Source: Candidatus Hadarchaeales archaeon
Lineage (GTDB): Archaea; Hadarchaeota; Hadarchaeia; Hadarchaeales; JAWBSP01
Direction of reading: 5' to 3'
DNA length: 21,091 nt
NCBI GenBank assembly: GCA_038842485.1
Contig: JAWBSP010000018.1
Coordinates: 1-21,091, forward strand
Part shown: piece by piece, positions 269 through 20,037 of the stretch
Layout of the letters: every line of letters starts with the position of its first letter
Numbering within the stretch: the first letter of the stretch is position 1
Program-made: the position numbers and the translations under genes
Notes under the pieces: generated by a model
Database searches by the model: none
What the model was told of the DNA's origin: nothing
Seen by the model: only the letters and a program-made list of their open reading frames with translations

Positions 269-559
269 GTTTCAACCACTGTAGCGAGAACCAAATGAAA
301 CGGTGAAATGGATATGTTTCATGTTGCAAGGAGCTACTCGCGGGTTTGGAGGAAGCATTTTTGGTTTTGGCTCGAATAGGATCTCTGTTTGCTCTCTTAT
401 CCTAAAGCTTTACTAGCGGTGCTTGTACCCGCTGTGGTAACCGTTTTATCGAAAATCGTGTTTCAGTGAATTTTCAAATGAAACGATATGTTTCAAAAAA
501 ATGTTGCAAAATCGTTTCAAACGTGTTTCAGAAATGTTTCAAATTAAAACGTTGTTTCA
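269..559. repeat. AT-rich cluster of GTTTCA/GTTGCA hexamers, partly at 11-bp periodicity
   Basis: GTTTCA at 269, 316, 460, 490, 514, 525, 536, 554; GTTGCA at 323, 503; inverted TGAAAC at 296 and 479 (TGAAAC-GATAT-GTTTCA at 479-495). Confidence 0.75.
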
Positions 560-673
560 AAATTGTCGTAAGCCACACGGAACATGCCCTTGTTTGGGTA
601 TTCCCCCATGAGGTTGGGCGAGGAATTTTTCAACAACTCGAGGCTCGATTTCGAGTCAGTACTTTTTAGCCGA

Positions 674-2822: not shown

Positions 2823-3407
2823 TTAGAAATGCCAGCTACTTTTCACCGCCACCACAATCGACTTAAGCTGGTCGAAGTCTTTGAGAAGGAGTTCCTTCGT
2901 TGAGCCGCTGTAAAGCCCAGCTGCGGGGTGAAAAGTGAGGAAGAGCTTAAATTTCAGACCGGCGAAGGTACAATCCAGCAGCCTCCCGTGTTCAGCAGTC
3001 ATGCTCACCGGCCTGCCGAGGAGCTCCCCGGCGGAGATCCTCCCCAGTGCTATCACGAGCTTCGGTTTCAGGATGGTGAGCTGGCCCACCAAGAATGGTT
3101 TGCAGGCCTCTATCTCCTCGGGAAGGGGATCCCGGTTCCCCGGAGGTCTGCATTTTACAGTGTTGCAAATGTAAACTTCCTCCCGCCTCAGCCCGGCTCT
3201 CTCGAGCAGGGTGTTGAGGAACTTCCCGGCGGCCCCGACGAAGGGTCTCCCCTGCTGATCCTCCCAGTACCCGGGAGCCTCGCCCACGAACACGATCTTG
3301 CTTGGATTTCCGTCGGCGAAAACGAGCTTGGTCCGGCCTTTGTGGAGGGCGCACCTCTTGCAATTCTTCGCCTCGCGCTCAAGTTCCTCGAGTGTCTTCG
3401 GGTTCAT
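2823..3407 (-). CDS. udg: Uracil-DNA glycosylase, family 4 (Fe-S)
   Basis: CKRCAL, VGEAPG, GRPFVGAAG, CNTVKCRPPGNRDP, C and TFHPAA motifs. ATG 3407 (MNPKTLEEL) preferred over 3434. Confidence 0.93.
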   Translation of the reverse strand: MNPKTLEELEREAKNCKRCALHKGRTKLVFADGNPSKIVFVGEAPGYWEDQQGRPFVGAAGKFLNTLLERAGLRREEVYICNTVKCRPPGNRDPLPEEIEACKPFLVGQLTILKPKLVIALGRISAGELLGRPVSMTAEHGRLLDCTFAGLKFKLFLTFHPAAGLYSGSTKELLLKDFDQLKSIVVAVKSSWHF

Positions 3408-3480
3408 GAATCCCCAGAGGGGGGCCTGCATCAAATATTCTCATCATGAGAACCCAACTTGTTTGCTAGACTAAGGTTGA

Positions 3481-3727
3481 TGTAACACGTGTTACAACTC
3501 GTTGGCCCAGATTTGTCTCAGCAGCCCGCTGACATTTCTGGAGATGTAACACGTGTTACACTTTTGCTTTGGTATATCTTCACTGTAATCCGTTTTTGGC
3601 ATGTAACACGTGTTACACTCTGCGCTAAAAGTGTCAACCGAGGTTGAAACACGTGTTTCATTTTTTGCTAAGAATCGCCATTCACGCTTGGCGGTTTGAA
3701 AAGCCTAGGCTTGTAACACGTGTTACA
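3481..3727. repeat. Array A: five interspaced 16-bp perfect palindromes TGTAACACGTGTTACA
   Basis: Copies at 3481-3496, 3545-3560, 3602-3617, 3645-3660 (variant TGAAACACGTGTTTCA) and 3712-3727; spacers of 48, 41, 27 and 51 nt. Confidence 0.95.
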
Positions 3728-3794
3728 TCTTGGTTCGACCATGGCCCTCTCTTTTTGTAAAACACGGGGAAAGAATTTACTGACTAGAAACGCT

Positions 3795-4532
3795 TTAGAG
3801 AAGCATTCTGATTCCCACACCCACGCCGACAATCCCCAGCATTTTTTGGAGTTTCCTAGCAGGGGCACGCAGGGAAATCCAAGCACCAATGGGTCCTCCG
3901 GCGGCGCATCCGAGGGCTAGCGGGAGGGCATGAGATGGGGAGAAGTTTCCAAGTGAGAAGTGGGAGAGGAAAGCAGCCGTCATGGTCAAAGACATCCCGA
4001 ACATGGAAGTTCCCGCTGAAATTTTAATGGACATACCGAGAACCAGAAGCATTACGAGCTCGTCCACAATTCCTCCCCCAATCCCAAACATCCCTGAAAC
4101 GAGCCCGCTCGCAAAGCTCCCAGCCAGGACTGTTGCCACGAGCTTGGGCCCGGGTGGCATAGGGCCCAGCGTTCCCTCCCCTTTTCTTGTGAGCAGTCTG
4201 AGGGAGGAGAGCAGGAGCAGCGCGCTGAAGGCCAAGGAGAGCGGGCGGGAAGATATTAGGGTGGTGAGGTATGTCCCGGCAATCGCCCCGGGGATGTCGA
4301 GGGTGTCGAGAAGCAGACCTACTCTGTAGTCGATGCACTTCTGGAGGGCGTAGGCAATCGTGGCTGAACAGCTCAGCACGGTGATGGCGAACAGGCTGGT
4401 TCCGATGGCGGCGTGGATGGGGAGCCCTGACCAGAGGAGGAGGGGGACCATCAGCATCCCGCCCCCGAGCCCCAGGGAGGAGAAAAGGGCCGAGATGAGC
4501 AGACCGGCAGGGAAGAGGAGGAGCTCCCTCAA
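3795..4532 (-). CDS. Sulfite exporter TauE/SafE (DUF81) family membrane protein
   Basis: Two SSLGLGGG / SGMFGIGGG repeats, AIGTSL and SAGTSM motifs, highly hydrophobic. TTG start overlaps the upstream stop. Confidence 0.88.
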   Translation of the reverse strand: MRELLLFPAGLLISALFSSLGLGGGMLMVPLLLWSGLPIHAAIGTSLFAITVLSCSATIAYALQKCIDYRVGLLLDTLDIPGAIAGTYLTTLISSRPLSLAFSALLLLSSLRLLTRKGEGTLGPMPPGPKLVATVLAGSFASGLVSGMFGIGGGIVDELVMLLVLGMSIKISAGTSMFGMSLTMTAAFLSHFSLGNFSPSHALPLALGCAAGGPIGAWISLRAPARKLQKMLGIVGVGVGIRMLL

Positions 4533-5956
4533 TTCACCTCACGGAGGAACTGGTAAAGGGAGTTGTCGTCCGGGATTCCGTCTAGGTCGGTGTCGACCTC
4601 CCTCCAAGAGTAGAAGAAAAGGCCTGCGAGCTCGGGAAACTTCCTGAGGATTTCCCACTGCCCGCGCGCGAACCTGAGGTCTCCGGCCCCCCATTCCGTG
4701 ACGATCACGGGCTTCCCCTTCAGCTTCCCGTACTGCAGGTATGAATTAAGCAGATAGGGGTAACCGAACGTGCTGGTTTTGAGGGGCTCGATCAACCAGC
4801 CTTCGGTCCACAGGTACATTCTCATCCCAGTCCCCAGCAGGGCCGCATAAAATGGGTTCGTTCTCGTGTCCCTCCACCACATCTCCACCAGCCCCGTCCA
4901 GCTGGCGGCTTGGAGTGGCGGGTAGGCGTTGAAGCCGAGGAGATCCGTGAATTCCATGGGGCCAAATCCCCGATGCCGTAGCAGCAGGAGGTCGGGGGAG
5001 TGCAGAATCATATGCCCGGCGTGAAAGGTTGGTCTATGACTTCTCCCCTTGAAGACCGAGTTCACCTCCTTCAGATGCTCCCTCGGTGAGGAGAGTTCGG
5101 GAAGGTAGTCCTCGTTTCCTATCCCCCAGTAAATGTTTTCCAGATCCCCCAGCTCCCGTATCATCCGTTCCGCGTCCTCAGGGGTCTTCCTCACCGCCCA
5201 GCCCTCTCCCGTCCCCACCAGCACGTGGAGGCCGGAATCATGCAGAGCCCTGATGAAAGCCGGGTCCGCCGCAGCCTCCCAGGATATTCTCACCGAGTTG
5301 AAACCAGCTTCCCTCAGACTTGAGATGACCGCGGACCAGGAGTTCTCCCGAAGGTGAGGGAGAACCATCCCCTTCAGGGTCACGTATTCCCGACTTCCTC
5401 CACTATTGCTGAGCGAGAGCTGGAGGAGAACGGGAACCAGCAGGCAACCAGCAAGCAGCCCAGCAAGAGGTTTGATCCAGCCGACGGTGAGTCTAAGGGA
5501 TTTCCAGTTGGGTCGAGCTGCTCGGATCACCTGCGTGTTCGCCCAGAGGTCCCCGAGTCTCCGCCCTCTTTTCTTCATGAAGTAGAGCCCAACGAGATAG
5601 AGCCCAGCCGGAAATGCATCCACGATTCTAAGAACGTTTCGAACGAGCGACTTTCTGATTCCAATGGGTTCACCTTTTCTGTCCACCACGCGCAGACCGA
5701 GGAGCCACTTCCCCGGAGTTCGCCCCCCGCAGAGCCCCTCAAGCAGCAGCGTGTATGTGAGGTAGGTGCAGGGAAGCGTGAAAAGCAAAAGGGGTGGAAA
5801 AATCGGGTTGACCCAAAACTCCTCGGTCAGTCTCACCCTGAGTTCAGCGTACCACACGGGGTAGAAGGCTATCAGGAAAATGAAGAGGCGGTCGAGCAGG
5901 AGGGCCAGCACTCTTCTATGCACTAATCTCATCTCAACTCGGAACCCTTCCCCCAA
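4529..5956 (-). CDS. RDD-family membrane domain fused to a clan GH-A-like TIM-barrel glycoside hydrolase domain
   Basis: N-terminal RRVLALLLD...GRTPGKWLLGLRVV...RNVLRIVD...RRLGDLWANTQV (RDD), then a TM helix, then GFNSVRI, WGIGNE (acid/base), GFNAY, PVIVTEWG (nucleophile) and GLFFYSW. The start may be ATG 5929. Confidence 0.72.
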   Translation of the reverse strand: MGEGFRVEMRLVHRRVLALLLDRLFIFLIAFYPVWYAELRVRLTEEFWVNPIFPPLLLFTLPCTYLTYTLLLEGLCGGRTPGKWLLGLRVVDRKGEPIGIRKSLVRNVLRIVDAFPAGLYLVGLYFMKKRGRRLGDLWANTQVIRAARPNWKSLRLTVGWIKPLAGLLAGCLLVPVLLQLSLSNSGGSREYVTLKGMVLPHLRENSWSAVISSLREAGFNSVRISWEAAADPAFIRALHDSGLHVLVGTGEGWAVRKTPEDAERMIRELGDLENIYWGIGNEDYLPELSSPREHLKEVNSVFKGRSHRPTFHAGHMILHSPDLLLLRHRGFGPMEFTDLLGFNAYPPLQAASWTGLVEMWWRDTRTNPFYAALLGTGMRMYLWTEGWLIEPLKTSTFGYPYLLNSYLQYGKLKGKPVIVTEWGAGDLRFARGQWEILRKFPELAGLFFYSWREVDTDLDGIPDDNSLYQFLREVN

Positions 5957-6013
5957 ATGCCTGCGAGTTCTGACCTGAGAGTAGCAAATAAATAATGTGG
6001 GTAGGAGGAGAAC

Positions 6014-6817
6014 ATGTCAGAGGTCGGGAAGCGGATAAGGCTGGAAAGGATAATTGACCGGAGGACGCACAGGACGGTTATCGTTCCAATGGACCACGGC
6101 CTGAGCATGGGGCCCATTCAGGGTCTCGAAAGCATGGTTCAGATCGTCAATCAGGTGGCGGAGGGAGGGGCGAATGCCGTGGTCCTGCACAAGGGGATAG
6201 TGAAGGCTGGTCACAGGGGCTTCGGCAGGGACATCGGGCTTATCATCCACCTCTCGGGAAGCACCAGTCTCTCTCCAGATCCGAACGCGAAGGTGCAGGT
6301 CGCCTCTGTTGAGGAGGCCATCAGGCTCGGGGCGGACGGGGTATCCGTGCACATCAACGTGGGGGCGCCGAACGAGCAGGAGCAGTTGAGAATGCTCGGC
6401 GAGGTGGCGGAGGCCTGCTCCCACTGGGGGATGCCGCTCTTTGCCATGATGTATCCCAGGGGGCCCAAGGTAGAGAAGGGCAAGGAGCACGACCCCGAGC
6501 TCGTGGCCCTGGCGGCGAGGGTGGGAGCCGAGCTTGGGGCGGACATCATCAAGACGGTTTACACGGGTGATCCGGATTCGTTCGCCAAGGTGGTGAGGGG
6601 ATGCCCCGCACCGGTGGTGATTGCGGGCGGGCCGAAGATGCAGACGGACAGGGATGTGCTGGAGATGGCGGCGGGTGCCCTCCGGGCGGGGGCCATAGGC
6701 ATTTCCATCGGCAGGAACATTTTCCAGCACCGGAACCCAACTGCCATGACCAGGGCTCTTGCAAAGATAGTTCACGAGGATGCTTCCGTTGAGCAGGCCC
6801 TCAAAGAGCTGACTTGA
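6014..6817 (+). CDS. aroA': 2-amino-3,7-dideoxy-D-threo-hept-6-ulosonate (ADH) synthase, class I aldolase
   Basis: [24 protein letters not shown] (Schiff-base Lys), AGGPK and GRNIFQH motifs. SD GGAGGAG upstream; adjacent to DHQ synthase II. Confidence 0.93.
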
Positions 6818-7905
6818 GGAAGCTATTTTGGGTTAGAGCTGATTGGAGTTCCTCTTGGGAGGAGATCAAGCCCTTCATCTCGGCCGCCGCTGACGCCGGG
6901 TGCGATGTGGTGGTCTGCAGGCCGGACCACATCCCGAGAGTTATGGAGGTTGGAACGGTGTCCTTGGCCACGTGCGAACCCTCGCAGGCGGGCTGGCTCC
7001 TGCTGCAGGCTGGGACGGTCCAGGAGGTGGTGGAGGCGGCCAAAAGGGCAAGGGGAGAGAAGGTGGCTCTGAGGATTGGGATCACCAGCAAGGAGATGGA
7101 GCGGGCGGCGGTTGAGTGGGGTGACAAGTTCTCCTGCTTGGTGGTCTGCACCACCGACTGGAAGGTGATCCCCCTCGAGAACCTGATAGCCAATCTCCAC
7201 GGTAAAGTACCGCTGCTGGCAGAGGTCAGGAGTGCCGAGGAGGTGAGGCTGGTTCTCGAGACGCTCGAGCTTGGGGTGGATGGGGTGATGCTGGATCCGA
7301 GGGAGCGCGGACCGGCGGAGATAGGAAGGGTGGCGGCGGAGCTCGAGAGATCCCCTGAGAGGGTGGAGCTTAGGCCGGCCAGGGTCACCTTGCTCAGGCA
7401 GGTCGGGCTGGGGGAGAGGGCGTGTCTGGACACCGTGGTTTCCATGTCTGTTGGGGAGGGGATGCTGGTGGGGAGTCAGGCGGAGGGTCTTTTCCTCGTT
7501 CACTCCGAAACCCTTCCCAGCCCCTTCGTGGAGCCGAGACCCTTCAGGGTGAATGCCGGTGCGATTCACTCTTACATCAGGGTGCCGGGTGGCAAGACGA
7601 GGTATCTCTCGGAGCTCTCCTCCGGGGATGAGGTTCTCATAGTGAACGTCAGAGGGGAAACCAGAGTGGCGACCATCGGGAGAGTCAAGCTCGAGCGAAG
7701 GCCACTCCTGCTGGTGGAGGCGGAGTGCGAGGGGGGGAGGTACAGGGTGATTCTCCAGAATGCTGAGACCATAAATCTCGTTGGCGCGGATGGCAAGCCC
7801 GTCTCGGTGGCCAAGCTCAAGCCCGGTGATGAGGTCCTCCTGTGTGTGGAGAAGGGAGGAAGGCATTTCGGAGTGAAGGTGGAGGAGACCGTGGTGGAGA
7901 AATGA
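6814..7905 (+). CDS. aroB': 3-dehydroquinate synthase II
   Basis: [59 protein letters not shown] and GRHFG motifs. TTGA start/stop overlap. Confidence 0.95.
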
Positions 7906-8591
7906 GGCTCGGAAAGAGGGAACTTCCGACTCCGGCGCTCTGTGGGTGCGTCACGGGTGAGAACCCCAGAGAGATGGAGGAGGGGGTCGAACGCGCCAAA
8001 GAACTAGGGGCCGACTGTGTCGAGCTCAGGGTGGACTGGCTGAAGGAGTGGGAGGGGTGGGAGCGGCTTCTCTCCCTAGATTTCCCCAAGATCTTGACCA
8101 ATAGACCCGTGCGGGAGGGCGGCAAGTTCAGGGGAGGGGAGGAGGAGCGGGTTGGGATCCTGTTGAGGGGGATTGAACTCGGGGTCGACTGTGTCGATAT
8201 CGAGTTTTCTTCTGCCCCCGAACTTTTACAGAGGGTTTTGGAGGAGGCTAGGAGGCGCGGAACCAGTACGATTCTTTCCTTCCACGACTTCGATGGAACC
8301 CCCCCTCTCGAGGTGCTGAAGCAGAGGGTTGAGGAGCTCTCAGCCCTGAATCCCGATTTCGTGAAGCTCGTGACCATGGCGCGCAGCAAGGAGGAGTGCT
8401 TCCGGATGTTTGACCTCATACGCTCCGTGCGCGGGCGCCCCATCATCGCCTTTGCCATGGGTGAGGAGGGACATGCTTCGAGGATTGTGGCCGCACTGCT
8501 TGGAAGCCCCATCGTCTATACCTCGGTGGGGGAGCAGACCGCCCCCGGGCAGCTGGGGCTTAAGGAGATGAGGGTGATCCTGAGGAGGTGA
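7902..8591 (+). CDS. aroD: Type I 3-dehydroquinate dehydratase
   Basis: VELRVD, ILTNRPVREGG, SFHDFDGTP, VKL, FAMGEEGHASR and APGQ motifs. ATG 7902 overlaps the aroB' stop (ATGA). Confidence 0.93.
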   Translation: MRLGKRELPTPALCGCVTGENPREMEEGVERAKELGADCVELRVDWLKEWEGWERLLSLDFPKILTNRPVREGGKFRGGEEERVGILLRGIELGVDCVDIEFSSAPELLQRVLEEARRRGTSTILSFHDFDGTPPLEVLKQRVEELSALNPDFVKLVTMARSKEECFRMFDLIRSVRGRPIIAFAMGEEGHASRIVAALLGSPIVYTSVGEQTAPGQLGLKEMRVILRR

Positions 8592-8594
8592 GGG

Positions 8595-9455
8595 ATGATT
8601 TTCGGTTCAACAAAGGTGGTGGCCCTCATTGGCGATCCCGTGGAGCGGAGCCTTTCCCCTCCCATCCAAAATGCCGCGTTCAGGGCCCTCAGGCTCGATT
8701 ACGTTTATGTCGCTTTCAGGGTGACGCGCGATCAGCTGCCCAAGGCCGTGGAGGCGACTAGGACCCTGGATCTGGCTGGTCTCAACGTCACCCATCCCCA
8801 CAAGATTTCCATTCTCGGTCTGCTTGACCAGCTGGACGAAGAGGCATCGGCGATCGGGGCCGTCAACACGGTGAAGAACGAGGGCGGGAGGCTGAAGGGA
8901 TACAACACGGACGGGCGCGGGGCGGTGAGGGTTTTGGAGGAGAGGGTCGGAAGCCTTTCAGGTAAAAATGTCCTGTTGATCGGGGCGGGGGGAGCTGCCA
9001 GGGCCATTGCGTTCTCTCTGGCGGAGAAGGGGGCAAATCTGAGCATAGCGAACCGCACGCTGGCCAGGGCGAAGGAACTCTCAGTGGAGCTCGAGCGGAA
9101 GCGGGGGGTCAGGGCGAGGGTGGTGAGCGTGAAGCCTTGGTCCCTGTCGGAAGCCGTGAAGGGGGCAGACATTCTCATAAACGCCACGACGGTTGGAATG
9201 TATCCTAGGACGCGGGAGACCCTAGTTTACGCGAAGATGATGCACCCGAACCTGACGGTTTTTGACATAGTGTACCAGCCCTACTACACCAGACTGCTAA
9301 GGGAGGCGAAGAGGGCGGGGGCGAAAATCGTAAGCGGGGTCGAGATGCTGGTGGCACAGGCGGCCCTTTCCTTCGAGATATGGACGGGCAGGCAGGCGCC
9401 GGTTGAGGTGATGAGGAGGGAGGCCTGGAGGCTGGTAAGGAGATGGAAGTTCTGA
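8595..9455 (+). CDS. aroE: Shikimate dehydrogenase
   Basis: SLSP, GLNVTHPHK, GAVNT, GYNTDG, GAGGAARA, NRT, INATTVGM and DIVY motifs. Confidence 0.95.
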   Translation: MIFGSTKVVALIGDPVERSLSPPIQNAAFRALRLDYVYVAFRVTRDQLPKAVEATRTLDLAGLNVTHPHKISILGLLDQLDEEASAIGAVNTVKNEGGRLKGYNTDGRGAVRVLEERVGSLSGKNVLLIGAGGAARAIAFSLAEKGANLSIANRTLARAKELSVELERKRGVRARVVSVKPWSLSEAVKGADILINATTVGMYPRTRETLVYAKMMHPNLTVFDIVYQPYYTRLLREAKRAGAKIVSGVEMLVAQAALSFEIWTGRQAPVEVMRREAWRLVRRWKF

Positions 9456-10258
9456 TCGTCGGGGCGGGGGCGATGGGGGAGTGGTTCGCCCGCCTCTTCA
9501 AGCGGTGGGGCTGGGAGGTCTGGGTCACGGATGCGGACGAGCGTAAGGCGAGGAGGGTTTCCGAGCGGCTTGGGGTGAGGTTTGGGCGGGAGGTCCTCAC
9601 TCGCGCGGATGTGGTGCTGGTGGCGGTTCCCATCTCCTCCACTCCCTCCGTCTTGGAAGAGGTGGGTGCGAGGATGAAGCGCGGATCCCTGCTCATGGAG
9701 GTGGCATCGGTGAAGGAGCAGACGGTTGCGGGGATGCAGAGGCTCAAATCCGCCCAGCTGGAGCTGGTTGCGCTTCACCCCCTCTTCGGGCCCGGTGCCT
9801 CCGAACTCAGGGGGGAGAGGTTCGCCTTCATCCCGGTCAGGGCAGGGAGGATCTTCAAACAGGTGAGGGAGAGGCTGGAGGCGGAGGGGGCCCGGCTGTT
9901 CAAGACCGACTGGAGGGAGCACGACCAAAAGATGGCCAGGGTGCAGGCCCTGAGCCACCTGATCCTCCTCCTCTACCTCAAGCTCTGCGAGAGGGGGGAG
10001 CTCCAGACCCGTCTTTCGAGGAGCCTCGCTGAGGTGGCCAAGGCGCTCCTGGCCGGTAACCCCTCCGTTTACTACGACATCCAGACGCTCAACCGATACT
10101 CGGCCACGGTGAGGGGGGAACTTATTGAAACCCTGAAACAGCTGGACGGACTGTTAAGGGAGGGGAAGAAGGAGGAGTTCGAGGAGATCTTCAGGAGACT
10201 TGCCCGGGAGTTTGGGAAGGAGGTTGAGGAGGCGTACAGGAGGCTGTACGTATCTTGA
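9443..10258 (+). CDS. tyrA: Prephenate dehydrogenase
   Basis: GAGAMG Rossmann motif, EVASVK, HPLFGP and EHDQKMARVQALSH. Confidence 0.9.
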   Translation: MEVLIVGAGAMGEWFARLFKRWGWEVWVTDADERKARRVSERLGVRFGREVLTRADVVLVAVPISSTPSVLEEVGARMKRGSLLMEVASVKEQTVAGMQRLKSAQLELVALHPLFGPGASELRGERFAFIPVRAGRIFKQVRERLEAEGARLFKTDWREHDQKMARVQALSHLILLLYLKLCERGELQTRLSRSLAEVAKALLAGNPSVYYDIQTLNRYSATVRGELIETLKQLDGLLREGKKEEFEEIFRRLAREFGKEVEEAYRRLYVS

Positions 10259-11073
10259 AGATAGGTGTTCTGGGCCCGCGCGGGACGTACAGCGAGCTCG
10301 CGGCTAGGGCCCGTTTCGGCGACGCGGACTATGTTTGGTATCCGAGCATAACCGACATCGGGAGGGCGGTCGAGCGTGCTGAGGTGGAACTCGGGGTCGT
10401 CCCCCTTGAGAGCCTGCGGGAGGGGAGCGTGGGGGAGAGCCTGGACCTGCTCGCCTGGGGCAACGTGAAGATAAGGGAGGAGATAGTTTACCCCATCTCC
10501 GTCTCCCTGCTGGCGGTTCCCGGCACGAGGCCCGAGCAGATAACCCAGCTCCTCTCCCACCCGCAGGTCTTCGCGCAGTGCCGGGAGTTTCTCTCGCGGA
10601 GGTTTCCGAGGGTGGAGCTGGTGGAGGTCAGCAGCACGGCGAGGGCGGCCGAGCAGGTGGTGAAGGCAAGGCGCCCCCAGATAGCGAGCCTGGGCCCCCC
10701 GAATTTGGCGCAAATTTACGGGCTGGAGGTCCTCTTCAGCGACATCCAGGGGGAGGAGATAAACCTCACCAGATTCTTGGTTCTTGCGTTGCAGGATAGT
10801 CCACCGACGGGTTACGACAAGACCTCCATCGTCTTTTACACGGCGGAGGACAGGCCGGGAATCCTGTGGGAAATCCTGGGCGAGTTTGCGTCCAGGAAGA
10901 TAAACCTCACCAAGGTTGAGTCCAGGCCTTCCAAAAAAGCTCTCGGGGATTATCTGTTCTTTGTGGACTTCGAGGGCCATCACCAAGAGGAGCGCTGCAG
11001 GGAGGCCCTGGAGGGAGTCAAGCGGAAGACGGCCATGCTGAAGATTCTTGGCTCCTATCCCCGGAGGTTCTGA
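10255..11073 (+). CDS. pheA: Prephenate dehydratase with ACT domain
   Basis: LGPRGTYS, SHPQVFAQC, NLTRF, DRPG, INLTKVESRP and LGSYP motifs. Confidence 0.95.
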   Translation: MKIGVLGPRGTYSELAARARFGDADYVWYPSITDIGRAVERAEVELGVVPLESLREGSVGESLDLLAWGNVKIREEIVYPISVSLLAVPGTRPEQITQLLSHPQVFAQCREFLSRRFPRVELVEVSSTARAAEQVVKARRPQIASLGPPNLAQIYGLEVLFSDIQGEEINLTRFLVLALQDSPPTGYDKTSIVFYTAEDRPGILWEILGEFASRKINLTKVESRPSKKALGDYLFFVDFEGHHQEERCREALEGVKRKTAMLKILGSYPRRF

Positions 11074-11125
11074 TCTGAGGGCGATAACTGCTTGGGTCTT
11101 TGAATTCTTCCAGAGGCTTGGAGAG

Positions 11126-11560
11126 CTACCTTGGTGAATCTCTCCTTTTGACCAAATCCAGCATGTCTTTCACATCCAGGGTCTCTATCCCCTTTGGCTC
11201 TCCTTCTATGTTTCCCTTGTCCGGCACCACTAGGATCTTCCTGGCACTGAACCTGCTTAGCTTTTCTTCGATCGATCTGATCTCACCCGCATCCAAAAAT
11301 TCCTTCCATTTCACCTCAGCCACCGCTCGTAGATTTTCAAACTCAAAAAGGGTCGACGTGATGAGGATGAGGTTGCCCACCACCCCTCCCGAATGGAATT
11401 CCCTGAGGGGCGGCCGGTAGCTTTGGATCAGGAAGGGCTCTCAGATAGACAGCCGACTCCAAGAGCTCCTTTCCCTTGACCTCCCTCGAGAGAGCCAGGA
11501 GGGCATCCCTCTCTTTCCCGTTTTCCTGCGCCCGTAAAGGAGCTTCCAGGGTCCCGCACA
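11126..11560 (-). pseudogene. Truncated, frameshifted archaeal ATP-binding / PD-(D/E)xK nuclease-fold (DUF234-like) protein, C-terminal remnant
   Basis: RAVAEVKWKEFLDAGEIRSIEEKLSRFSARKILVVPDK resembles the ExK-type C-terminus of archaeal ATPase proteins. Upstream sequence continues in another frame (ELLESAVYLRAL). No Walker A region is present. The boundary at 11560 is approximate. Confidence 0.5.
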
Positions 11561-11708
11561 CTCGACCTTCCCGATTTCTATTCTTCTGGGTATTATTCTC
11601 TAAGACAACGTCACAATCTGGGTGGCAGGCTAACTCTCTCAATTTAACCGCAATCCGGATTATCCAGATTGCTCCAACTATTTTACAGATACTTTTCGGC
11701 TCGTTCAG

Positions 11709-12067
11709 TGTTACTATAGTAACATCGGATCCTGAAACGGAGGCTGGTTGTGATTTTTCGATTTTCCGGCTGTGTTACCATAGTAACACGGAAACCAAAG
11801 CTGTCGGTGTCCAGCTTCAACGAGTGTTACTATAGTAACATCACAACTCAAACATGCGAGAGTGTGGGAGGGTTGAACTTGTGTTACCATAGTAACATCG
11901 ACTCAAAAAGACGCGGACCGTTCTATGATCTGAGTGTTACTATAGTAACATCGGAGCCTGAGGAAAGGGATGAGAATTGAGGTAGCTTCAAGTAGTGTTA
12001 CTATAGTAACATTCAACTTGGAAAAAAGCGTGCCATTGCTGAGTCCGAATGTGTTACTATAGTAACA
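11709..12067. repeat. Array B: seven interspaced 16-bp palindromes TGTTACYATAGTAACA
   Basis: Copies start at 11709, 11773, 11825, 11882, 11935, 11996 and 12052 (11773 and 11882 have a CATA centre); spacers of 48, 36, 41, 37, 45 and 40 nt. All copies are preceded by G and 6 of 7 are followed by T. Confidence 0.96.
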
Positions 12068-12145
12068 TGGCCAGTCCGTCAAACCGCAAAAATTTTGGAA
12101 GCCCTAGCTGAAACGGAAACGTTGCAGAACCTGTAGGCAAGATTA

Positions 12146-14092
12146 CTAAACCATTGAACGTCTTTGAAGTTCTCCAGCACCTGTGGCGACGCGGATTTCC
12201 ACGAATCCATAATGCTTGAGGTCCCGCACCTCCCCGGTCAGGGTTCCATCCTTGAGGGAGAGTCTGCTCGTGCCGCTCTCGCCCTTAAAGTCTGCACTTT
12301 TCACCCCCCTCTCGAGGCGGATGGAGAAACCAAAAGAGACAGGCCGCATCTCGTCCCGCTTCCGGTCGTAGTTGCAGTTGAGCATGTGCAGAAAAATTCT
12401 ATCGTTCGCACGGTTGGCGGAGAAAAAGACCTCGGGGGGAGCGTCGGTTGAGAGGATGGATGGGATGGTGTCCTTTTCACCATATACTTCGGCCCTCTCC
12501 AGAAAGTCGTGTTGCGCCGGGGTGAGAAGCGATTCGGAGGGTACGAGAAACCTTCCCCTCCTCCTTTCGGGGAGCTCGGGCAAGATCTCCCCGTCGCCGA
12601 AGATCTCGATCTCCCACAGGACGTGTCTCCTGCAAAGGGAGCTTACGATCTCGGTCAGGTGTTTCATGTAAGGGTGGGAAAGGAAGGTGTATCCTTCAAG
12701 GTGGGAGCGGTAGGAGAAAACCAGGCAAACATCCGACAGCTGGGTTCCCTCGGCCGCCCCCCTGTTTCTCGCAATGAAGGAGTTGGCCTCCGCCAGGGGT
12801 TCGAGGGGCGGGTAGTAGGGTTTCCCCATGGTGTAGCAGCTGTAGGGCGCCATGAAGTTGGCCTGGCAGGAGAAGGCCTCGTAGGCGTAAAACTTCAGCA
12901 GCTCGTTCGCGCGCTTCCCCCTCAGTTTTCTGGAGGTGAGCACCGAGGGAACGGCCGTAACTTCCTTCCCCCTCCCCGCCGCCCTCGCGAGCTTGTACCA
13001 AGGGGAGTGTGTTCTTTTGGGTGGAAGACCGAAATCCAGTTCGAAGCAGATGAAGTCCACGTGCCTCATCAGGGGGAAGTAGGGCGGGAGGAGCTGGGCG
13101 AAGTTTCCCGTAACCTCGATTTTTCTCCCCTTCCGCGCCGCGTACTCTCTTGCATGCTGGGCCAGCTCCCTGAAGGTTCTCTCGGAGCTCCGAATCTGGG
13201 CAATCCTGTACTCCCTCCAGAACGGGAAGTGTTTAACCAGCAGGTGGGCGCGAATGGGACCAACCAGCCGGGAAAGCAGGAACCTACGGAGGCTGAACTT
13301 CTTGGGATTTATCCCGAGTTTCCTCAAACCCTCCTCCCCATGCTTCTCCAGCAGGTAGTTCAGGAATGCCCTGCTGCAGTGCCGGCAGTAGCCCGCCCCG
13401 CACCAGATGGACTCGAAGGGCGTGGCGGACTCGTCCACTTGGATTCCGTGGGCCCCGTAATCGATCTGAAGCTCGACCATTCGCTTCAGGTAGGAGAGCC
13501 AGTGCGGACTGTTCCTGCACATGGTTAGGCAGGAGAAGGGCCCAAGAATGTGGGGCAGAATCCAGAGGACCCAAGGTTTGGTGCCCAGGATGCTCCTGCA
13601 GGAACAGGCCTCCACAAGGCTCTGGATTTCCCTTTCCCCCTCCTTGAACTTGCCGGGGAAGTAATCCTCCCATCTTCCAAGCCCGAGGAGCCTGTCTTGG
13701 TAGAAGGCATCCAGGCCCCACCTGACTTTCTTTCCGGGTCCCCTTCGGCTCATCCAGGAACAAATCTTCCCGTCCCTCACCCCCATCAGGATGTCGTTGT
13801 ACCCCTGCGCTTCCCAAACCACCGCGAAGACCTTGATCCCTTCTTTCTCGCACCTCTGGATGAATTCCCTGTCGCTCCATCCTCCACGCTCCCAAGGTCT
13901 CTCCCCTTCTGCCTCGAGCCTGAGGAGGGGAAGGCCGGCGACCCCAGAACCCAGAGCGGACCAGAGCAGGGCTTCGGCCTTCAGGCGCTTCATGTCCTCC
14001 AAAACCTTCTCGGTCTTGGGGGAGAGGAAGGCGCAGACGGGTCTCTTGCTGGGGGGATAGGTGGAGCACATGCTGAAGATGCGGTAAGCCAT
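12146..14092 (-). CDS. Hypothetical 648-aa protein, probable TIM-barrel glycoside hydrolase with GH42-like features and a trimerisation-like C-terminal domain
   Basis: YGAHGIQVDE and GYCRHCSRAFLNYLLEKHG (like the GH42 cysteine motif), WREYR, SDVCLVFS, IFLHMLN. ATG 14092 (MAYRIF) preferred because the longer ORF runs through the palindrome. Confidence 0.6.
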   Translation of the reverse strand: MAYRIFSMCSTYPPSKRPVCAFLSPKTEKVLEDMKRLKAEALLWSALGSGVAGLPLLRLEAEGERPWERGGWSDREFIQRCEKEGIKVFAVVWEAQGYNDILMGVRDGKICSWMSRRGPGKKVRWGLDAFYQDRLLGLGRWEDYFPGKFKEGEREIQSLVEACSCRSILGTKPWVLWILPHILGPFSCLTMCRNSPHWLSYLKRMVELQIDYGAHGIQVDESATPFESIWCGAGYCRHCSRAFLNYLLEKHGEEGLRKLGINPKKFSLRRFLLSRLVGPIRAHLLVKHFPFWREYRIAQIRSSERTFRELAQHAREYAARKGRKIEVTGNFAQLLPPYFPLMRHVDFICFELDFGLPPKRTHSPWYKLARAAGRGKEVTAVPSVLTSRKLRGKRANELLKFYAYEAFSCQANFMAPYSCYTMGKPYYPPLEPLAEANSFIARNRGAAEGTQLSDVCLVFSYRSHLEGYTFLSHPYMKHLTEIVSSLCRRHVLWEIEIFGDGEILPELPERRRGRFLVPSESLLTPAQHDFLERAEVYGEKDTIPSILSTDAPPEVFFSANRANDRIFLHMLNCNYDRKRDEMRPVSFGFSIRLERGVKSADFKGESGTSRLSLKDGTLTGEVRDLKHYGFVEIRVATGAGELQRRSMV

Positions 14093-14152
14093 CTGAACAT
14101 TTGGGGGATTCTTATTTCCGAAAGGGTGACCAGCATTCGCGAGGCTGAGCGA

Positions 14153-14168
14153 TGTTACTATAGTAACA
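14153..14168. repeat. Lone perfect copy of the array B palindrome
   Basis: TGTTACTATAGTAACA in the divergent intergenic region, 60 nt from ATG 14092 and 35 nt from tRNA-His. Confidence 0.95.
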
Positions 14169-14203
14169 CATCCCCTTAACAAAGCGCTGATCTAGATTTT
14201 GAT

Positions 14204-14276
14204 GGCCAAGGTGGTGTAGTGGTTAGCATCCGGGCCTGTGGAGCCCGTGACGCGGGTTCGAATCCCGCCCTTGGCC
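14204..14276 (+). tRNA. tRNA-His (GTG)
   Basis: Acceptor stem GCCAAGG/CCTTGGC, anticodon arm CGGGC-CTGTGGA-GCCCG, T arm GCGGG-TTCGAAT-CCCGC. G-1 (14204) is encoded opposite C73 (14276). No intron; CCA not encoded. Confidence 0.97.
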
Positions 14277-14546
14277 CTACGGAATCAGTTCCAGCGCCTG
14301 TTTGGGGACTCCTCTTTGCACCAGCTCGAGCTTTTTCGTTTTTCTCATTCTTTTTATCTGGGCTTCCCTCTTCCTGGCTTCCGCGAGGGTGGGGAGGAGT
14401 TCGGCGTAAACGAGCTTGAGGGGGAGCCACCCCTTGGTCGAGCGCACTCTCCCAGAGAGGTGGGACTGGATTCTCCCCCGGAGGTTGGAGGTGGAGCCCA
14501 CGTAGAGCCTGCCCCCCCTGCCCATGAGGATGTACACCCAAGGCAT
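14277..14546 (-). CDS. Small GIY-YIG nuclease family protein (UPF0213-like), 89 aa
   Basis: MPWVYILMGRGGRLYVGSTSNLRGRIQSH...LVYAE...ARKREAQIK. Start taken as ATG 14546. Confidence 0.88.
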   Translation of the reverse strand: MPWVYILMGRGGRLYVGSTSNLRGRIQSHLSGRVRSTKGWLPLKLVYAELLPTLAEARKREAQIKRMRKTKKLELVQRGVPKQALELIP

Positions 14547-18489: not shown

Positions 18490-20037
18490 ATGGAGTACGC
18501 CACCCACCCCCTCCTCAAGCCCAACACCCTTGAGCTCAGGGAATATCAGGTCCGAATCCTTCCGAGCATCCTCGAGAGGAACTCCCTCGTCATCCTCCCC
18601 ACCGGGATGGGGAAAACCTTCCTGGCCATCATGGCCACCTGCTGCAGGCTTCAAAAATTTCCGGGTAGCAGGGTTCTCGTCATGGCCCCCACCAGACCCC
18701 TCGTCGTCCAGCACTATCACACCTTCAAAAGGTGCCTCAACCTCCCAGAGCAGGACTTTGCGCTCCTGACCGGGGAGACCGCCCCCTGCGAGAGGGAAAA
18801 GCTCTGGGAGAAAGGGAGGATCCTGTTCGCCACCCCACAGGTGGTTGAAAGGGACCTTCTTGCCGGGAGGTTCAACCTTCGGGACTTCTCGCTCTTGGTT
18901 TTCGACGAGGCTCACAGGGCGGTTGGCGACTACCCGTACGTTTTCATTGCGGCCCAGTACATGAAGAGCTCGAGGGACCCGCTGGTGCTAGGCCTCACCG
19001 CCTCACCGGGAGGGGAGAGGGAAAGGATCGAGGAGGTCAAGAGGAACCTTTTCATCCAGTCCGTGCAGATAAGGAGCGAGCACGATAGGGATGTCAGTCC
19101 CTACCTCATGCCCGTGAAGATCGAGTGGAGGAGGGTGGAGCTCCCGGAGTACTTCTCAACCCTTCGGGGCCTCCTGCAGGGGCGTCTGAAGGAGCACCTC
19201 TCCCTCCTGAAGCAGGCTGGCCTCCTCCCGAGCACTCAGGACGTCACGAAACGGGAGCTGCTGAAGGTGCAGGAGCAACTGCTCGCCCGGCAGAGGGAGG
19301 GGGAAAATGTCTCCGCGCAGCTTCTGTCCCAGGCGATCTGCATGAAGCTGCTCCACGCGCTCGAGCTGCTTGAAACGCAGGGGGTCTACGCTCTCAGGGA
19401 AGCCCTGGTCCGCCTTCAGGTGAAGGGCGGCCAGCCCGGGTCCAGCAAGTCGGACAGGATCCTATCCCGCGACCGCGACATCCAGACCGCCCTCGCTCTT
19501 TGCAGGAGTGTGGAGGAGAGGGGTTTCCCCGATCACCCGAAGCTTACCGAGTGCCTGGAGTGCGTGAGGGAGCAGCTCTCGGCGAATCCAGAGTCTCGAA
19601 TACTGATTTTCGCCAACTACAGGGACACGGCCGAGAGGCTGGTTGCGCTTCTGAGGGCGGAGGGGATAAGGGCCGAGAAGCTGCTGGGGCAGGCTGAGAG
19701 GGGCGGGAGTTCGGGCATGTCCCAGGCGGAGCAACTCAGGGTCATCGAGCAGCTGAAGCGCAGGGAGATCAGCGCCCTGGTTTCAACCGCCGTGGGGGAG
19801 GAGGGGCTGGATATCCCCGATGTGGAGCTGGTGATTTTCTACGAGGCAGTTCCCAGCGAGATAAGGTCGATCCAGCGGAGGGGGAGGACCGGGAGGACGA
19901 GGCCGGGGAGGGTGGTGGTTTTGCTCGCCAAGGGAACCAGGGATGAGGCCTATTACTGGTCGGCGGTGAGGAGGGAGAGGGAGATGAGGAAGGTTCTGCG
20001 GCAGAGAACACTCGGGGAGTTTGCATGCAGAAGCTGA
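18490..20037 (+). CDS. hef: Hef/FANCM/Mph1-like SF2 DEAH helicase (helicase part only)
   Basis: LPTGMGKT, APTRPLVVQH, FDEAHRAVGDYPY, GLTASPG, HPKL, EEGLDIP and IQRRGRTGR motifs. ATG 18490 (MEYATHPLLKPNTLELREYQ). Confidence 0.92.
   Translation: MEYATHPLLKPNTLELREYQVRILPSILERNSLVILPTGMGKTFLAIMATCCRLQKFPGSRVLVMAPTRPLVVQHYHTFKRCLNLPEQDFALLTGETAPCEREKLWEKGRILFATPQVVERDLLAGRFNLRDFSLLVFDEAHRAVGDYPYVFIAAQYMKSSRDPLVLGLTASPGGERERIEEVKRNLFIQSVQIRSEHDRDVSPYLMPVKIEWRRVELPEYFSTLRGLLQGRLKEHLSLLKQAGLLPSTQDVTKRELLKVQEQLLARQREGENVSAQLLSQAICMKLLHALELLETQGVYALREALVRLQVKGGQPGSSKSDRILSRDRDIQTALALCRSVEERGFPDHPKLTECLECVREQLSANPESRILIFANYRDTAERLVALLRAEGIRAEKLLGQAERGGSSGMSQAEQLRVIEQLKRREISALVSTAVGEEGLDIPDVELVIFYEAVPSEIRSIQRRGRTGRTRPGRVVVLLAKGTRDEAYYWSAVRREREMRKVLRQRTLGEFACRS

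Follow-up and report, generated by a model that had tools for sequence, protein, structure and literature searches.

Strain-variable palindrome arrays in a Hadarchaeota genome and a putative family of small proteins that may bind them

Why would a small archaeal genome carry stacks of short palindromes between its genes, and what would read them? The question is raised by contig JAWBSP010000018.1, here called the window (the whole stretch of 21,091 nt, contig C18 of its assembly), which carries two such stacks, array A and array B. It belongs to a Hadarchaeota metagenome-assembled genome (GCA_038842485.1, here G000; 943 kb, 27 contigs, 89% complete), and the comparison set consisted of 65 genomes of the order, G001 and G002 being congeners. 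The reading that we favour, with a probability of about 0.5, is that A and B are strain-variable clusters of operator-type sites for paralogous, dimeric DNA-binding proteins with a ferredoxin/Cas2-like fold, a group that we call SPF; it is drawn from sequence comparison and structure models. A literature search, limited to the search results themselves, returned nothing on palindrome arrays in Hadarchaeota or on palindrome-tied Cas2-like DNA-binding proteins.

Two arrays, one frame and a genome-wide set of palindromes

Array A (3481..3727) has the start of a uracil-DNA glycosylase gene on one side and the end of a TauE gene on the other, and consists of five 16-bp palindromes: four exact copies of TGTAACACGTGTTACA at 3481, 3545, 3602 and 3712 and the symmetric variant TGAAACACGTGTTTCA at 3645. 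Start-to-start distances are 64, 57, 43 and 67 bp, with spacers of 27-51 nt. Array B (11709..12067) consists of seven 16-bp palindromes TGTTACYATAGTAACA, at 11709, 11773, 11825, 11882, 11935, 11996 and 12052, with start-to-start distances of 64, 52, 57, 53, 61 and 56 bp and spacers of 36-48 nt. Its flanks keep one orientation throughout, with G or T-G on the left and mostly T on the right. An eighth, single copy (14153..14168), whose flanks have the opposite orientation, is found in the divergent region between a 678-aa open reading frame (ORF) on the minus strand and a tRNA-His gene on the plus strand, and ends 36 nt ahead of the first base of the tRNA. The positions and distances given in an earlier note on this DNA were thus reproduced, and neither pattern was matched in any of 100 dinucleotide-preserving shuffles made for each array; both arrays are real and far above chance. 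The spacers of array A are no more alike than in shuffles (z = -1.3) and those of array B are mutually unrelated (z = 1.0).

The earlier note had described the arrays as one half-site, GTGTTAC, used in opposite geometries. When placed in register, A reads TGTAAC-ACGT-GTTACA and B reads TGTTAC-TATA-GTAACA, and 10 of the 16 positions agree. Among the 65 genomes, TGTTAC-N4-GTAACA was found in 16 (0-1 for a reversed-pattern control), with lineage-specific centres, namely TATA, CATA and CATG in this genus and ACGT and ATAT elsewhere. In addition, TGWWACACGTGTWWCA occurs in 14/65 genomes, mostly as TGTTAC-ACGT-GTAACA, a form that bridges A and B. Judged from these sequences, the two arrays are better explained as variants of one 16-bp frame. 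The shared heptamer then arises because the centre of A, ACGT, abuts GTTACA, and opposite geometries are not needed to account for the overlap. In B, the leading G of the supposed half-site is a flank base of this array only, the genome-wide core being TGTTAC-N4-GTAACA. Site centres are themselves palindromic (ACGT, TATA, CATG, ATAT).

A de novo scan of G000 for further arrays, as the note had suggested, was carried out with 6-nt arms and gaps of 0-8 nt, and sites were counted with one or two mismatches allowed. It yielded 93 sites in at least eight families (A, A', B, C, C2, D, E and F). Family B, TGTTAC-N4-GTAACA, ranked first with 30 sites, followed by C (TGCGAACGTTCGCA), D (TGCACACGTGTGCA), E (TGCGCACGTGCGCA) and A; the added families are C2 (GGCGAACGTTCGCC), the hybrid A' (TGTAACACGTGTTTCA) and F (ACTACGAATATTCGTAGT). 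Crude gene calls contain 9 of the 93 sites, leaving 84 outside, despite covering 88.7% of the genome, and words of these families top the list of repeated intergenic 12-mers. Most sites are clustered in long spacers, on contigs C3, C9, C11 (three clusters), C12, C13 (several), C16 and C19. Exact copies of the C and D palindromes are also present in other families of this order. A and B hence belong to a locus-clustered palindrome family with further arrays in G000 and its relatives, as had been proposed. Its proposed period of about 55-60 bp did not hold: neighbour distances of up to 120 bp in all G000 arrays (n = 46) vary between 27 and 112 bp around a median of 64 bp and show no single mode, so that there is no period and no support for a histone tetramer footprint. 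Spacers are related to each other within the C and A' arrays (z = 8.5, 3.3 and 4.5).

Many single B sites end 17-63 nt ahead of start codons, and 14 B sites lie within 22 kb on contig C13, which also carries orc1/cdc6. We rejected the idea that B serves tRNA or small-RNA genes as a promoter, since a family-B palindrome adjoins only one of 40 tRNA genes, that of tRNA-His. On C11, a GGCGAACGTTCGCC site lies 148 bp ahead of tRNA-Ile. On C23, an exact A and an exact B palindrome stand 100 bp apart (6909 and 7009), between divergent paralogous ATPases that are 37% identical and AAA/DUF4143-like (named by eye). The five copies of family F (C19, 233-747) lie beside the gene for the beta subunit of phenylalanyl-tRNA synthetase, and no associated small gene was identified there.

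Both arrays are gained or lost at strain level and are absent from a related strain of roughly 93-95% identity and from the congeners. The sequencing runs that contain the window stretch are hot-spring metagenomes, with no RNA run listed among them. Two of them (X16 and X17), labelled metatranscriptomic and flagged as probably DNA, match the window at 90-99%, with most pieces below 95%, and therefore represent a related strain. In its contigs, position 11074 is joined to 12200 through 31 other letters, with no B palindrome, and 254 other letters replace 3336-3938 (601 bp), which we infer to be too short for array A plus about 241 bp of unaligned flanking coding sequence. In G002 the spacer between the glycosylase and TauE genes is about 60 bp long and free of the array, and at the array B locus pheA is directly followed by an NAD-synthetase-like ORF (named by eye). 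The orthologous A locus of G001 has no palindrome with arms of at least 7 nt. The strain-variable 1.1-kb segment (11075..12199) contains array B and a decayed gene remnant, and its borders show neither terminal repeats nor target duplications. A contig from another run (X6) carries an 85-bp deletion polymorphism at 11466-11552, just upstream of array B, its aligned pieces being otherwise free of differences.

Several single B sites keep their positions between contig C13 of G000 and G001: before flavodoxin/RnfG, after RnfB, inside an ApbE ORF and after the tyrosyl-tRNA synthetase (TyrRS) gene. From G000 to G001 these sites switch jointly, from tg-TGTTAC-TATA-GTAACA-ca to tgtc-TGTTAC-CATG-GTAACA-gaca, and B sites are uniform within a genome and different between genomes. 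Those of the ApbE ORF (C13, 25186-25240, in G000; contig C3, locus L038 7301, in G001) are, at the same place in both species, about 490 nt into a 692-aa ORF with ApbE as its C-terminal part. No stop interrupts the frame at the palindromes, which could read VTIVT, and the ORF may be two genes. Between B palindromes, no small ORF was found on C4 or C13 of G000 or in G001.

Small SPF genes and their own palindromes

The earlier note had also advised a search for a co-occurring gene family across genomes and had considered reading by paralogues. Such genes were found, and each palindrome family is tied to a small SPF gene of its own, with a palindrome at the 5' end of the gene and often another after its stop codon. 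Different palindromes thus accompany different paralogues of one small-protein group, as an association.

SPF-C is an 80-aa ORF beside C, C2 and E sites. It has no Pfam or NCBIfam match, and a search of 1.84 billion proteins brought up only 8 representatives. In other Hadarchaeota, CGAACGTTCG lies in the N-terminal codons and another copy directly after the stop codon, 222-231 bp apart, in 7/7 complete loci (the eighth locus is cut and was left out of this count); a third palindrome follows 55-70 bp further on in 4/8 loci. Within a locus both flanking copies are the same variant. Homology between genomes takes in the promoter box, the SPF-C gene and its second palindrome and leaves out the flanks, and the context of the gene differs from genome to genome. 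We rejected the idea that the palindromes are the ends of a mobile SPF-C cassette, because homology starts further out than the first palindrome, at a TTATAAA box upstream of it. The C arrays are situated downstream of SPF-C copies, and next to the C, D and E arrays stand SPF copies with frameshifts or stops. A related small ORF, SPF-D, which has D palindromes on both sides, is intact in G029 and stop-bearing or degenerate in G000.

SPF-L, a protein of 98 aa encoded on contig C8 of G000, is present in 50/65 genomes, irrespective of B. We observed TTGTTA..TAACAA directly ahead of its start in 12/12 loci and, in nine of these, a second copy across a CTTTATATA (TATA-like) box; the SPF-L operators share the register TGTTA-N6-TAACA. 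Its gene, between those for deoxyhypusine synthase and CDC48, is deleted in G001 (C15, 7055-7097) and has lost its 5' part in G002 (C8, 23459-23644). Further paralogues show the same arrangement: in G018, CTTATGTAACACGTGTTACATAAG (exact A) stands 13 nt ahead of the ATG and an A-like palindrome follows the stop codon, in G029 a paralogue is flanked by three copies of TCTAGACACGTGTCTAGA, and on contig C20 of G000 TGAAACACGTGTAGCA abuts the TATA-like box of an 86-aa gene (18614-18871). Sequence links join SPF-L, the C20 protein, SPF-B (described below) and SPF-D; SPF-C and SPF-E are joined to the SPF-L group only through an N-terminal motif and the topology predicted for them. In other archaeal phyla there are look-alike clusters with 489 and 781 members. 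At six loci (L076, L070, L082, L081, L080, L077) proteins of about 200-230 aa have an SPF-like domain as their C-terminus and a conserved N-terminal part (..LSFFYNVFREGYVLYKRP..), and no palindrome of at least 12 bp was found there within about 70 bp upstream of the domain.

The profile of SPF-L also matched the N-terminus of a 172-aa ORF between the TyrRS gene and a radical-SAM gene in G000, G001 and G002. In G000 this SPF-domain protein, SPF-B, is encoded at C13 10816-11334 and is absent from the crude gene calls. A B palindrome ends 17 nt ahead of its ATG. In G002 a near-copy, symmetric only in its inner 14 bases (GTTACTATAGTAAC), ends 18 nt ahead of the ATG, and in G001 the palindrome is inside the first codons of the listed ORF. 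The conserved B site noted after TyrRS is therefore the 5' site of SPF-B itself. Orthologs of SPF-B occur in 35/65 genomes. A TGTTAC-like element, such as TGTTACAATAGTATCA, was seen by eye upstream of the gene in all 16 loci read, perfect in 6 and one-off in 10, and exact TGTTAC-N4-GTAACA stands beside an ortholog in G034, G056, G009, G021, G024, G044, G049 and G062. The gene is present in 15 of the 16 genomes with exact sites versus 20 of the 49 without (Fisher p = 3e-4, which is overstated since related genomes are not independent). Based on these neighbourhoods, SPF-B is most likely the reader of B, although a putative one. For A, an SPF paralogue such as the product of the 86-aa C20 gene is a weak candidate.

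A second word, TCCAGTGGAAA followed by GGGG, lies in or just ahead of the first SPF-B codons (C13 10828-10850 in G000, and loci L095-L107) and is kept at the nucleotide level across genera; orc1/cdc6 is 3.5 kb away on C13. We take this word to resemble archaeal origin recognition boxes. The region upstream of cdc6 looks coding.

No Pfam match was obtained for SPF-C, SPF-L or SPF-D at E values up to 10. AlphaFold2 (AF2) models of SPF proteins have a topology compatible with the Cas2 type, with weak Foldseek agreement (E 3e-3 to 0.2); SPF-L has the same topology with an insert, its best model reaching a predicted local distance difference test (pLDDT) score of 80 and the other four 46-58. A homodimer was modelled for SPF-B and scored 0.63, against 0.01 for the best of three controls, a mark that was reached by 20/30 solved homodimers and 1/23 single chains; the pass may partly reflect likeness to Cas2 dimers, which are solved structures. 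At least 73% of contacts agree between runs, with pLDDT of at least 87, and the predicted interface is symmetric and formed through beta strands. As in Cas2 and VapD, an acidic residue closes strand 1 (YDF, WDL, WDV or FDL in SPF proteins) and a beta-sheet dimer is predicted. Unlike Cas2, SPF proteins have no Pfam Cas2 match, at E up to 10 for single proteins and up to 1 for the genome scan, and no Cas1 was found in G000 (89% complete). We know of no Cas2 gene that carries a gene-specific palindrome, unlike the SPF genes.

What may read the palindromes

In the explanation that we favour, symmetric SPF dimers would bind the palindromes as double-stranded DNA sites. Each paralogue, tied to its own 14-24-bp palindrome at its own gene, would bind its own region and regulate itself, further copies would place other DNA under the same protein, and in arrays A and B such sites would be stacked in dispensable DNA. 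Binding of the palindromes by SPF proteins, and regulation of transcription through this binding, is what we infer from the sequences. Dyad sites do stand at promoters, including the own promoter of the putative regulator, and are conserved across species for B with SPF-B and for SPF-L. The palindromic sites and centres, taken with the symmetric homodimer model of SPF-B, favour reading of double-stranded DNA by a dimer. The 5-7-deep stacking could possibly serve cooperative repression or insulation of variable DNA, or titration of the protein. It is also possible that stacks are leftovers of decayed SPF cassettes, which is seen for C, D and E and not for A or B.

Several observations weigh against SPF proteins as the readers. 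The link between protein and site is an association in gene neighbourhood, and some other regulator could bind the palindromes and merely control SPF genes. Array B sits between convergent genes, and both arrays are dispensable at strain level, which is unexpected for ordinary operators. In the window, a search with the SPF-C profile, the one profile used there, gave no SPF-like ORF. In 20/65 genomes the SPF-B gene is present and exact TGTTAC-N4-GTAACA is absent. For A, the C20 site is imperfect, the C20 protein has no close ortholog, and an exact A palindrome beside a paralogue occurs in one genome only (G018). SPF-L had to be rejected as the reader of B, since G001 and G002 both keep B sites (20-21 in G001) while its gene has been lost by deletion from the former and truncated in the latter. 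Homology of SPF-C with SPF-L is not demonstrable (hhalign probability 0.9%). Concerning the fold, no Foldseek match reached E 0.001 or better, the top matches (E 3e-3 to 0.2) being mostly Cas2, plus VapD for SPF-L, and a wide structure search yielded nothing beyond generic ferredoxin-like folds, the best of them with a Z of 7.4.

The palindromes could be operators of conventional transcription factors, of the winged helix-turn-helix, Lrp/AsnC, ribbon-helix-helix or other kinds, with SPF genes among the targets and the arrays as multi-operator regions. This would suit the promoter-proximal sites, whose positions are kept between G000 and G001, and SPF proteins that belong to no recognised DNA-binding family; archaeal regulators with palindromic operators of 16-20 bp, sometimes two adjacent, are also on record, for example RbkR (PMC5397151). 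We consider it unlikely, however, as every palindrome family would need its own factor always targeting a different SPF paralogue, and a Pfam scan of ten window proteins showed no candidate factor gene beside the arrays. RbkR itself was rejected as a reader, because its consensus forms, as listed in the same paper, differ from A and B and do not fit either (PMC5397151). Autoregulated factors such as RbkR (PMC5397151), whose palindromic operators flank a TATA box or start site, nevertheless offer a likeness, with symmetric 14-20-bp sites, one at the gene of the regulator and others before further genes, and with a motif that drifts between lineages together with the protein. Unlike them, the putative SPF reader has no helix-turn-helix, ribbon-helix-helix or other known DNA-binding family, and SPF-type sites are also found after stop codons, inside 5' codons and 5-7 deep in non-essential, strain-variable DNA. 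Another explanation holds that the sites are selfish, self-amplifying repeats, akin to repetitive extragenic palindromes or bacterial interspersed mosaic elements (REP/BIME), to miniature inverted-repeat transposable elements (MITEs) or to cassettes moved by a recombinase that acts at the palindrome, and that the arrays are insertion hot spots or graveyards without host function. Although improbable in our view, it keeps real weight because arrays are gained and lost at strain level and because SPF copies next to the C, D and E arrays have decayed. The homogeneity of sites within a genome and their difference between genomes, the related spacers in C and A' arrays, the varying contexts of the SPF-C gene and the decayed ATPase genes next to arrays agree with it, and intergenic clustered palindromes of several families per genome, rapidly gained and lost, are a feature of REP/BIME and MITEs. 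On the other hand, there is no uniform unit length, several B sites are position-conserved across species, SPF-C homology starts at the promoter and not at the palindrome, and no IS200/RAYT-type (Y1, PF01797) transposase match was obtained in the 89% of the genome that is assembled. Unlike REP/BIME, these are perfect short palindromes with no Y1 transposase found in G000 and, to our knowledge, no REP head motif; unlike MITEs, arrays A and B have unrelated spacers that vary in length, and the borders at 11075/12199 have no terminal inverted repeats or target-site duplications.

Processing of the arrays into small RNAs, another suggestion of the earlier note, would make them transcripts of the CRISPR type or of the type III antitoxin type, with the Cas2/VapD-like SPF protein as nuclease partner. 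The layout of repeats with variable spacers recalls CRISPR, as do the unrelated spacers and the strain variation; Cas2 accounts for most of the top Foldseek matches of two SPF models, VapD appearing as well for SPF-L, and C arrays are downstream of SPF-C copies. CRISPR repeats are about 23-50 bp long with a constant period and spacers of near-constant length, whereas those found here are 14-16 bp long at irregular distances of 27-112 bp, and many copies are single and promoter-proximal. The palindromic centres and the copies upstream of TATA boxes, which would not be transcribed, point to recognition of double-stranded DNA. No cas1 or cas2 was found in the window scan, PF01867 (Cas1) and PF09827 (Cas2) had no match in G000 (89% complete), and an Rfam search of the window matched the tRNA and nothing at the arrays; we regard this origin as very unlikely. 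C/D-box RNAs were rejected as well, since by eye the spacers of A and B show no box C or box D pattern. Arrays that work as centromere-like or chromatin-organising platforms, in the way of sopC/parS or nucleosome phasing, appear highly improbable. Some role in chromosome organisation, segregation or recombination, as the earlier note had suggested, may still exist. The sopC site of the F plasmid, bound by SopB, is built of tandem units, each about 43 bp long, with 16-bp inverted repeats, and replicon-specific parS families have distinct palindromes for each paralogous reader. The 16-bp palindromes every 43-72 bp resemble sopC, the distinct palindromes would likewise go with distinct paralogous (here putative) readers, 14 B sites share 22 kb of the contig that carries orc1/cdc6, and a histone, identified by eye, is encoded in G000. 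Unlike sopC/parS, however, the sites occur at numerous loci and promoters across the chromosome; no ParB_N (PF02195) match was found in G000 and no partition ATPase beside the window arrays among the ten proteins scanned, the arrays are strain-variable, and a constant period, as chromatin phasing would have, is missing.

If SPF proteins bind the palindromes, they would form a new sequence-specific DNA-binding family on the Cas2/VapD-like ferredoxin fold, and the look-alike clusters of 489 and 781 members would become candidate families of this kind. The system would provide a natural series of paralogues and palindromes, with at least eight families in a 1-Mb genome and centres and arms that drift between genera, in which co-evolution of specificity could be read, and it would be a first handle on gene regulation in the uncultured Hadarchaeota. 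The sites proliferate and vanish within about 5% sequence divergence, which bears on the origin of regulatory or selfish DNA in streamlined genomes. A bolder and quite doubtful version is that SPF and palindrome make up a self-contained reader-plus-site system, the protein also helping to copy or insert the palindrome and the arrays capturing unrelated spacers. Were it true, the CRISPR adaptation module would gain a small relative or an analogue of independent origin, or else this would be a protein-guided selfish repeat of a new kind.

Surroundings of the arrays

On the left, array A is upstream of the family-4-like uracil-DNA glycosylase gene (2823..3434, minus strand), its nearest palindrome being 47 nt from the listed start, and beyond the 3' end of the gene for a TauE/SafE-family membrane protein (3795..4532, minus strand). 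On the right, array B lies past the 3' end of the 678-aa ORF (12146..14182, minus strand), which has no Pfam family and carries the single B site at its 5' end; translation of this ORF probably begins downstream of the listed TTG. The tRNA-His (GTG) gene follows at 14205..14277 on the plus strand. Within the variable segment, two out-of-frame ORF pieces of 85 and 99 aa (11126..11642, minus strand) resemble what is left of the C-terminus of an archaeal ATPase (ATPase_2/DUF234 kind), a call made by eye against the ATPase at C16 8963-10366; the 99-aa piece has no Pfam match. A MinD/ParA-like gene, recognised by eye, is found about 0.9 kb from the array on C16.

At 2030-2065 of the window, an overlapping tandem palindrome, TCCGGAATATTCCGGAATATTCCGGA, is directly upstream of a gene for a 444-aa protein with AlbA_2, HATPase_c_4 and HTH domains, and it is probably the own operator of this regulator. 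The GAATATTC centre of the palindrome is shared with family F on contig C19. Downstream of the same gene, at 290..570, we observed a cluster of at least eight GTTTCA/TGAAAC words at distances of 10-65 bp. GTTTCA is the outer half of the A-variant palindrome, some of the words occur as CGTGTTTCA, 65 bp apart, and the cluster may be a third, degenerate array.

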